UHGV virus genome: UHGV-0184544
Reading direction: 5' to 3' (one strand)
Length of the DNA: 27,297 nucleotides
DNA from: a virus
Below, one piece after another: positions 11,409 to 11,893 of the stretch (position 1 is its first letter; the number at the start of each line of letters is the position of its first letter). The notes under the pieces were generated by a model. That model was not told the DNA's origin. It was given only the letters and a program-made list of their open reading frames with translations, and ran no database searches. Both the position numbers and the translations under genes were made by a program.

Positions 11409-11498
11409 GCAGAATATTTTGCTGAAAAATGCGGTTTGCTCACACGGACGGATAACACGAAATCCTGCGAACTGACAAAAACTAAGTGAATAAAAGTA

Positions 11499-11536
11499 AA
11501 AACCCCGTTTGTTGGCTGCAAGCGGGGTTTTGTGTT
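11499..11536. terminator. Hairpin with T-rich flanks between the lysozyme and the inserted small ORFs (possibly bidirectional terminator)
   Basis: AAAACCCCG...(14-nt loop)...CGGGGTTTT followed by GTGTTTCTG; also T-rich on the complementary side. Confidence 0.4.
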
Positions 11537-11564
11537 TCTGACCTTGGATAAGGCAAGGGAGAAC

Positions 11565-11747
11565 ATGGAAAAGTATAAACGAATTCTGTTGAGGTTGACT
11601 ATGAAAAACGGCCTTGAACTGAAAGCGCCTGTAACTGATGACATCAGCAGAGCACTGGCTTTTGCCATTAAGTGGGTGGCGGTCGGTGTTGCTGTGTCCC
11701 CGATGCTGTATGGGCTGGCAAAACTGGTCATTGCGTTGAAATCGTGA
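11565..11747 (+). CDS. Hypothetical small membrane protein (moron inside lysis cassette)
   Basis: 60 aa from the ATG at 11565 after AAGGGAGA; C-terminal hydrophobic helix AFAIKWVAVGVAVSPMLYGLAKLVIAL. Absent from lambda and phage 21 at this position as far as I recall. Confidence 0.4.
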   Translation: MEKYKRILLRLTMKNGLELKAPVTDDISRALAFAIKWVAVGVAVSPMLYGLAKLVIALKS

Positions 11748-11761
11748 AGGGAGGATTAAGC

Positions 11762-11893
11762 ATGTCAGACAAACTCATAACGCTGGCGAAGATCCTCTGT
11801 GTAATTGTCGGCATTTCATTTTCACTCATGCTGGTTGCCATTTTCTTTTCCACCGCCTGGCGAGTCCTGACGTTATCGGGACTGGTGGGGTGA
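11762..11893 (+). CDS. Hypothetical 43-aa hydrophobic peptide (single TM)
   Basis: ATG at 11762 is 8 nt after [49 protein letters not shown] is almost entirely hydrophobic. Confidence 0.4.

Follow-up and report, generated by a model that had tools for sequence, protein, structure and literature searches.

An accessory segment with a terminator-like hairpin and two small membrane-peptide genes between the endolysin and Rz genes of 933W/Stx-type lysis cassettes

Phage P2 encodes LysA, an accessory membrane protein of lysis timing, between its endolysin gene K and its spanin genes lysB/lysC. We analyzed a comparably placed segment in the window, by which we mean the whole 27,297-nucleotide stretch of UHGV virus genome UHGV-0184544, the late region of a 933W/Stx (Shiga toxin)-like lambdoid prophage. 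The gap from the end of the endolysin gene at 11408 to the start of the i-spanin gene Rz at 11901 measures 492 bp, close to the ~490 bp given in an earlier reading of the same DNA (the original prediction), and holds, as that reading had also claimed, two open reading frames (ORFs) of 60 and 43 amino acids at 11565-11747 and 11762-11893, each behind a Shine-Dalgarno (SD) sequence, which we call ORF60 and ORF43. LysA resembles what we propose for their products in being a non-essential membrane protein encoded between the endolysin and i-spanin genes of a late operon; it differs in being larger and multi-pass, in sharing no sequence similarity with ORF60 or ORF43, and in belonging to a system with a canonical holin and a soluble endolysin. 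Judged by sequence comparison, the segment is a widespread accessory module of 933W/Stx-type lysis cassettes, which combine a pinholin with an endolysin of the signal-anchor-release (SAR) type. We tentatively propose, giving the idea somewhat less than an even chance, that ORF60 and ORF43 are non-essential inner-membrane modulators of lysis by pinholin, SAR endolysin, and spanins.

Accessory membrane proteins have precedents in cassettes with SAR endolysins, namely the lysis regulator gp62 and the pinholin gp63 of phage N4 (PMC12642591) and the releasin gp25 of phage Mu (DUF2730), which controls release of the SAR domain (PMC9239132). N4 gp63 is anchored C-terminally, with an N-terminal helix in the cytoplasm and a second start inside the gene (PMC12642591), which resembles what is predicted for ORF60 and its putative starts M1 and M13, but gp62 and gp63 have ~110 residues, are encoded upstream of the endolysin, and show no homology to the peptides described here, and the window already has an S21-type pinholin. 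Mu gp25 is likewise small and tethered to the membrane, with most of the protein in the cytoplasm, and its gene lies near those for a SAR endolysin and spanins (PMC9239132), but it has 99 residues, an N-terminal transmembrane domain (TMD; N-out, C-in), and a cytoplasmic domain of acidic character, whereas ORF60 is anchored C-terminally and its N-terminal part is basic; neither peptide matches DUF2730. The segment contains the following features:

11409 to 11498, plus strand: conserved 3' untranslated region (3'UTR) of the endolysin gene, from diversity over 39 unique sequences
11499 to 11541, both strands: intrinsic-terminator-like hairpin and T-run, from a terminator scan
11541 to 11557, either strand: small hairpin CCTTG-GATAAGG-CAAGG, its stem conserved and its loop variable across loci including Salmonella
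11565 to 11747, plus strand: ORF60, 60 amino acids, matching phrog_1115 at 1.4e-42 over residues 1-60
11572 to 11601, minus strand: sigma-70 promoter-like site TAGTCA-N18-TATACT, predicted only
11762 to 11893, plus strand: ORF43, 43 amino acids, matching phrog_4906 at 2.5e-27 over residues 1-43

ORF60 and ORF43 are, from their pattern of substitution and their hydrophobicity, real genes for membrane peptides, as the original prediction had claimed. We calculated Nei-Gojobori ratios of nonsynonymous to synonymous substitution (dN/dS) over the unique alleles from 87 loci and obtained in-frame values of 0.21 for ORF60 and 0.31 for ORF43 (0.23 in codons 1-24 and 0.36 in codons 25-43), with 0.9-1.7 in the off-frames and 0.09 in the endolysin gene R. 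The strongest single comparison is that of ORF60 codons 31-60 between the window and Salmonella, in which the proportion of synonymous differences (pS) is 0.54 and that of nonsynonymous differences (pN) 0.085, and a disrupted ORF is found in only a few of the retrieved loci. Nucleotide diversity (pi) is 0-0.065 across 11445-11834 and 0.05-0.24 in R and Rz, which suggests that the module has recently spread.

The ORF60 start codon follows its SD, GGGAGA, at a distance of only 3 nt, and a second in-frame ATG at 11601 (M13) behind a better-spaced GAGG would give a 48-residue form, so that two starts, each with an SD, are predicted. The 12 residues between M1 and M13 include four basic ones (net +3, counting the variable E2). 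AlphaFold2, run on a 32-sequence alignment, models two helices only, an amphipathic basic helix at residues 2-16 and, after a short linker, a long helix at 23-59, with a mean predicted local distance difference test score (pLDDT) of 79.5, exceeding 90 in the long helix. With a net charge of +3 in its N-terminal 30 residues and a C-terminal anchor, ORF60 is predicted to be tail-anchored, its basic amphipathic N terminus lying in the cytoplasm. On the Hessa hydrophobicity scale the helix sums to +3.7 to +4.0 and the SAR domain of the endolysin to +2.0 to +3.6, and the ORF60 helix thus appears weakly hydrophobic, in the range of a SAR domain. The strongly hydrophobic helix that the original prediction gave to both peptides is therefore present in ORF43 (-3.6 kcal/mol) and lacking in ORF60.

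Homologues of ORF60 occur in E. coli and, at 77-83% identity, in E. marmotae and Salmonella enterica, all named hypothetical, and tblastn finds ORF60 in only 14 phage records. In Salmonella the gap from ORF60 to the downstream Rz is 10 nt, the genes before ORF60 encode a SAR-type lysozyme and a holin of another family (PF16080), and the UTR and hairpin there are recognizably homologous to those of the window. The start position of the 60-residue form is kept in three upstream contexts, being an ATG that follows GGGAGA or a GTG that follows an insertion of 24-27 nt, in which case the insertion itself supplies a GGGAGG or GGAG. PHROG matches of the two peptides (phrog_1115, phrog_4493, and phrog_3246, with phrog_4906 for ORF43) have E-values of 1e-19 to 1e-42, but these four families have no functional annotation and their membership is uninformative on function.

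ORF43 has the SD AGGGAGGA and a TMD at residues 11-33 with a GxxxS motif, in a predicted N-in/C-out topology; the Hessa sum of this TMD, about -3.6 kcal/mol, is stronger than that of the Rz TMD (-2.05). It terminates 7 nt ahead of the Rz ATG, the SD of Rz is probably contained in its final codons (ggtggggtga), and ORF43 is probably translationally coupled to Rz. In tblastn it matches 276 phage records at 74-100% identity, mostly Stx phages and usually with no gene annotated under the match, and it falls into 115 protein clusters that are almost all from E. coli, one being also named in Shigella dysenteriae. Its length is 43 residues in nearly all full-length aligned members, the N-terminal 25 residues are nearly invariant, and its C-terminal third co-varies with the N-terminal TMD of Rz, the periplasmic domain of Rz recombining independently. 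In prophage Sp5 of E. coli O157:H7 strain Sakai the gene order is endolysin ECs_1213, antirepressor ECs_1214, ECs_5707 (the ORF43 homologue), and Rz ECs_1215.

We rejected two further identities for ORF43. A lipoprotein or spanin is excluded because K-I-L-C13 is not a lipobox and only ~10 residues follow the TMD, leaving no periplasmic domain; Rz and Rz1 have genes of their own at 11901-12368. A duplicated N-terminal TMD of Rz is not supported either, as the shared LCV(I/V)(V/I) is too short and the DNA similarity, judged by eye, too weak. An 83-residue protein (P0209, locus L092, 654-905) fuses the N terminus and TMD of ORF43 in frame to the C-terminal helix of ORF60, and in PhiR5_1 and phiSTEC1589 pieces of ORF43 and ORF60 adjoin in that order as separate ORFs. 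We gave the fusion little weight as "Rosetta-stone" evidence, for it comes from a single 1.3-kb read-assembly contig.

Upstream of both genes, the hairpin with T-rich flanks described in the original prediction is present at 11499-11531 (AAAACCCCGTTTG-TTGGCTG-CAAGCGGGGTTTT), preceded by an A-run and followed by a T-run, and it is therefore terminator-like on both strands. Positions 11504-11512 pair with 11520-11528 in a 9-bp G+C-rich core that A-T pairs extend, giving 14 pairs, 6 of them G-C, in the terminator scan. In 14 variants including Salmonella, 96.8% of cells remain paired in the stem, and 2 of the 9 pairs show compensatory changes. Relatives with an antirepressor gene (ant) in the gap have a different, plus-strand-only terminator at the same position, whereas loci with small peptides have the bidirectional one, and the presence of a different terminator at the same place suggests that termination after R is itself a conserved function. 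The distance from the terminator to the ORF60 ATG is only 33 nt, and the 3' arm of the small hairpin between them overlaps the ORF60 SD.

A consensus scan of 11250-11900 found no sigma-70-like site on the plus strand, even at 8 of 12 matches. Polymerase modified by the lambdoid antiterminator Q reads through intrinsic terminators. Given an upstream terminator and no plus-strand promoter between R and Rz, ORF60 and ORF43 would be reached by Q-dependent read-through, and they are most likely late genes made together with S, R, and Rz/Rz1.

The endolysin 3'UTR that precedes the terminator is conserved in its own right. Two near-invariant blocks (11409-11430 and 11449-11476) flank an 18-nt hypervariable island (11431-11448), and pairwise diversity in the blocks is 0.01-0.06 as against a pS of 0.34 in R, over the 39 unique sequences. 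It includes a small conserved hairpin, CGGAT-AACACGAA-ATCC(T)G, which is also present in the Salmonella locus, and the first 155 bp of the segment (UTR and hairpin region), and no more of it, match ~300 phage records, mostly Stx1 and Stx2 phages. Rfam searches of the 3'UTR and hairpin on both strands, at the gathering threshold and at E <= 10, gave no credible family; we rejected the best matches, a rimP leader (27.5 bits, cut-off 47) and BTnc005 (21 bits, cut-off 175), and also a nut/boxB-like reading of the UTR and an 8-codon ORF upstream, neither of which is, by inspection, conserved among the variants. Neither an Rfam family nor a promoter accounts for the blocks and the small hairpin, and the 3'UTR may be the source of a 3'UTR-derived RNA or serve as a recombination linker.

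The module is common. Of 5,426 complete E. coli genomes, 990 contain 80% or more of the 492 bp and 2,116 contain any part of it, at up to 13 places per genome; seven phage records have the whole module. ORF43 lies 5-10 nt upstream of Rz in nearly all loci read (80 IMG/VR loci and the phage records). The segment is thus no local peculiarity, as the original prediction had supposed, and corresponds to the normal state of 933W/Stx-type cassettes; nor do relatives annotate the two ORFs as lysis genes, the finding that prediction had named as refuting it, since both are called "hypothetical protein" (in the Prokaryotic Genome Annotation Pipeline, "hypothetical protein (x2)"). Its premise that the endolysin gene is normally followed directly by Rz agrees with most of 28 R21-like loci, an unbiased sample from other Enterobacterales, in which Rz or an Rz-like gene overlaps R or lies at most ~11 nt away. 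Relative to this lambda/21-type layout the module is therefore an insertion, and we rejected the idea of such a peptide in all SAR-endolysin cassettes. The GC content of the insert is 0.415-0.50, compared with 0.52-0.57 in R and Rz.

Among 933W-type cassettes the gap between R and Rz takes several forms:

about 490 bp: ORF60 and ORF43
about 1000 bp: ant and ORF43
about 1430 bp: ORF60, ORF43, and a methyltransferase gene, presumably on the minus strand
about 300 bp (TL-2011c): an unannotated peptide, ...MAEKLSTWKYILIWLVFVIMASGYFIGQIRWW
PhiR5_1: an ant-like gene, then four small peptides

Every 933W-type architecture examined has at least one gene for a tiny single-helix peptide ending 1-10 nt before Rz, and peptides of at least four types are shuffled among these cassettes. 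ORF43 and ant overlap at the ant stop codon in loci of the ant type. The TL-2011c peptide (L003, 2624-2797; also L094, 3658-3831) is a small ORF with a TMD in a seemingly empty gap and ends 1 nt before Rz; loci of this type have on the minus strand a promoter-like site, CTGACC-N18-CATAAT, that points toward the same bidirectional terminator. In 9 E. coli genomes a DNA methyltransferase is annotated in a 939-bp insert that lies between ORF43 and Rz (L019, 2633-3571; also L020-L022); no long plus-strand ORF is seen there, so the gene is presumably on the minus strand, and the insert demonstrates that the junction between ORF43 and Rz can be split. In Salmonella, Morganella, Trabulsiella, and Edwardsiella a doubly hydrophobic ORF of 32-44 residues overlaps the endolysin stop codon (L088 2708-2812; L117 3489-3611; L118 3489-3623; L104 3489-3614; L121 3494-3604), with a consensus of roughly ...hydrophobic...G(W/H)xGWGWFLLV..., to which the gene calls and library scans used gave no name; it is a further family of small peptides directly behind SAR endolysins. 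Pfam, NCBIfam, and PADLOC returned nothing for ORF60, ORF43, the fusion protein, or the other peptides of the gap, and only PHROGs matched.

The cassette around the segment consists of the following genes:

10655 to 10870, plus strand: S21-type pinholin, matching PF04971 (Phage_holin_2_1) at 1.4e-30 and PHROG holin families
10875 to 11408, plus strand: SAR endolysin (R21-like lysozyme), matching PF00959 at 8e-25 and phrog_7 (endolysin)
11901 to 12368, plus strand: Rz i-spanin, matching PF03245 at 2.3e-49
12121 to 12306, plus strand: Rz1 o-spanin, embedded in Rz, matching PF06085 at 1.7e-21

The pinholin has two possible starts in the style of phage 21, GTG 10655 and ATG 10664 (71 and 68 residues), the longer form adding M-Y-Q and so gaining no lysine, unlike S21, in which the extra residues are M-K-S. 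The N-terminal anchor of the endolysin is weakly hydrophobic (YGLSVAVLALIATGASA). Before the cassette the window encodes a helicase, a primase, NinG, a SASA-type esterase, and a DUF826 protein, and after it a Rha-like gene and genes named DNA-packaging or terminase in the closest relatives; stx genes and tRNAs were not found in the window. The STnc100 RNA family is represented by two full-length copies (7044-7237 and 7513-7721, plus strand; 139.9 and 129.8 bits) ~470 bp apart upstream of the esterase gene, an unusual tandem pair. STnc100 may correspond to the short PR' leader transcript of Stx phages. That transcript gives the small RNA (sRNA) StxS (PMC7547250). A further terminator-like hairpin at 10588-10616 (plus strand), between the DUF826/esterase region and the holin gene, may be the 3' end of a Pas-type sRNA, the prophage sRNAs PasA and PasC having been placed between esterase and holin (bioRxiv 10.64898/2026.05.13.724894). 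We rejected PasA/PasC as an sRNA of the gap between R and Rz on account of that location, and IsrK likewise, as its locus follows Q and not R.

How, then, might the two peptides act? On the reading that they modulate lysis, the endolysin 3'UTR would end in an intrinsic terminator, with the two tiny membrane-protein genes following it; Q-modified polymerase would pass this terminator, so that ORF60 and ORF43 would be made late, with S, R, and Rz/Rz1; ORF43, ending on the Rz ribosome-binding site, would be translationally coupled to Rz; and the peptides, present in the inner membrane at the time of lysis, would tune pinholin triggering, SAR-endolysin release, or i-spanin function. What leads us to this reading is the combination of late-operon position, membrane character, the SAR-like helix of ORF60, the association with SAR endolysins in two genera, and the precedents described above. 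It is also the best fit to the transcriptional layout, in which no plus-strand promoter is found and ORF43 abuts Rz and carries its putative SD.

Several points weigh against it. The literature searched yielded no functional or expression data for ORF60 or ORF43, and we detected no homology to holin, antiholin, releasin, or spanin families in Pfam, PHROG, or NCBIfam; as for holins in particular, neither peptide has a match in Pfam, the lysis families of PHROG, or NCBIfam, and the PF04971 pinholin at 10655-10870 already fills that role. Most R21-like cassettes in other Enterobacterales have no such genes, and the peptides must therefore be dispensable for lysis. The contents of the gap are shuffled and replaceable (ant, methyltransferase, other peptides), which resembles cargo more than a co-evolving lysis component, and the co-variation of ORF43 with the Rz TMD may be plain linkage of adjoining DNA. 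Low diversity means that few substitutions lie behind the dN/dS values within E. coli, and the absence of a plus-strand promoter comes from consensus scans alone.

The first alternative is that the peptides are cargo, riding in a permissive slot between R and Rz and benefiting the lysogen or the phage in a role outside lysis, such as inner-membrane superinfection exclusion, anti-defense, or an influence on host membrane physiology. This would suit a segment that is inserted relative to cassettes in which R abuts Rz, that has a lower GC content than its flanks, and that is less diverse than R and Rz, as expected of a module spreading by recombination; it would also suit a hotspot that takes up ant genes, a DNA methyltransferase, and unrelated peptide types shuffled in an arms-race-like manner. 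Insertion between genes that are adjacent in relatives and a deviant base composition are features of morons in Hendrix's sense. An autonomous moron, the suggestion of the original prediction, would also be expressed from the prophage by a promoter of its own and end in its own terminator. This is not what we find, for the terminator is upstream instead of downstream, no plus-strand promoter is seen, and ORF43 runs into Rz, stopping 7 nt before it. The upstream terminator makes expression in an uninduced lysogen unlikely, late timing is unsuited to classical exclusion functions, and PADLOC gave no match. We regard cargo as unlikely, though well worth keeping in view.

A second alternative is a toxic peptide under antisense control, resembling P22 sar/ant or a type I toxin-antitoxin system. 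A leftward promoter inside ORF60 would produce an RNA of ~70 nt, composed of a 5' stem-loop (which would be the small hairpin read on the minus strand), an A-rich linker, and the terminator, and this RNA, antisense to the ORF60 SD and ATG, would suppress the early or leaky translation of a peptide that acts on membranes. The minus-strand site is the sole promoter-like match in 10400-12700 and the only one in the relaxed scan of 11250-11900; it lies within the first 13 codons of ORF60, points at the bidirectional terminator, whose hairpin has a minus-strand T-run, and has an identical counterpart in Salmonella. Across 10 variants (56 loci), the 33 nt with which it coincides are nearly free of synonymous change (only AGG to AGA and ACT to ACC), codons 3-12 being almost synonymous-invariant next to the hypervariable codon 2 and in comparison with the pS of 0.54 in codons 31-60. 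The fold of the putative RNA has a z-score of -3.5, the TL-2011c-type locus has its own minus-strand site facing the same terminator, and the terminator is bidirectional in small-peptide loci and plus-strand-only in ant-type loci. A single consensus match is, however, no more than shuffled sequences give (1 found, 1.7 expected), and the conserved 33 nt, besides encoding conserved residues, take in the initiation region of M13 with its SD.

The likeness to type I modules (hok/sok, ldr/rdl, ibs/sib, tisB/istR; PMC2887945) and to P22 sar/ant consists of a small hydrophobic peptide and a putative short antisense RNA that overlies the ribosome-binding site and ends at a bidirectional terminator; the difference is that ORF60 and ORF43 have neither a toxin promoter nor homology and lie inside a late operon, not as a free-standing pair. 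The type-I-toxin-like peptide of the original prediction accordingly holds up in size (below ~60 residues) and hydrophobicity, with an ORF43 TMD of -3.6 and a weaker ORF60 helix, and fails in promoter and family: no toxin promoter was found on the plus strand, neither peptide matches known type I toxin families in Pfam or NCBIfam (Hok/Gef, Ldr, Ibs, TisB, ShoB, Zor, and others), and Rfam gave no match. The putative antisense RNA from the minus-strand site leaves it some probability. The literature searched contained no transcript evidence. Antisense control of a toxic peptide is in our judgment improbable. A composite of these ideas, in which the ~70-nt RNA gates ORF60 in its 60- and 48-residue forms and, with a Rz-coupled ORF43, sets the firing of the SAR endolysin or pinholin, is a long shot.

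A third alternative is that the ORFs serve as coupling or leader ORFs that, beyond a terminator and an extended untranslated stretch, bring ribosomes to an Rz gene with a weak SD, and that the peptide itself is incidental. Every peptide type in the gap ends 1-10 nt from the Rz start, the coding sequence of both endings, ...GLVG* and ...IRWW*, contains a GGTGG(G)GTGA-like SD, and the overlap of ORF43 with the ant stop codon fits the same pattern. There is precedent in the isrK-orf45-anrP locus of Gifsy-1, where the upstream ORF orf45 is coupled to anrP (PMC4825925). That locus resembles ours in having a conserved RNA with a terminator, a small ORF, and a coupled gene read by terminator read-through (PMC4825925), and in that an antirepressor gene occupies the same slot in Stx phages. 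It differs in that the IsrK locus follows Q, as the PR' leader, and not the endolysin gene, in the absence of an Rfam IsrK match here, and in that orf45 is conserved as an RNA whereas ORF60 and ORF43 are conserved as proteins. Purifying selection acts on the amino acids, above all in the helices; all peptide types are membrane helices, and ORF43 has a fixed length and hardly varies in its first 25 residues; in the window ORF60 and Rz are not neighbors; and the methyltransferase insert parts ORF43 from Rz in 9 genomes. We think it quite improbable that coupling is all these genes provide.

That the ORFs are chance frames in a conserved non-coding spacer is hardly credible, for although they are short, have no characterized homologues, are unannotated in most Stx-phage records, and show an overall diversity low enough to weaken the power of dN/dS, this ratio is well below 1 only in frame, the ORF60 helix has the excess of synonymous change against Salmonella given above, frame, length, SD, and start position are kept across different upstream contexts, and few retrieved loci have a broken ORF.

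The sequences are already known from PHROGs and RefSeq as hypothetical proteins, and we found no paper describing ORF60 or ORF43. The only genes listed in a survey of the lysis cassettes of Stx phages are S, R, and Rz/Rz1 (PMC8136144). Tree et al. 2014 do not mention the lysis genes in the main text or the flanking genes in the supplements, neither the peptide sequences nor the names of the flanking genes occur in the supplements of two ribosome profiling (Ribo-seq) papers on enterohemorrhagic E. coli, and ECs_5707 was not mentioned in the literature searched.

The lysis cassettes of Stx-converting and related lambdoid prophages set the time of the burst and thus the release of phage and Shiga toxin. 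What is new is that the 933W-type cassettes examined add to the known genes a conserved endolysin 3'UTR with a terminator and at least one tiny membrane-peptide gene abutting Rz. Annotation pipelines miss genes of the ORF43 type whatever their role (276 phage records, mostly unannotated), and the interest of the module comes from its commonness in Stx phages and the ease of their genetics. If the peptides do not tune lysis, they would be very small cargo genes hitchhiking in the late operon; if they do, lysis models based on phage 21 would need adjusting. Were ORF60 in fact gated by an RNA as in the composite reading, the timing of lysis, and with it the release of Shiga toxin, would be under an unrecognized layer of RNA control, present in roughly one-fifth to two-fifths of the E. 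coli sequenced.

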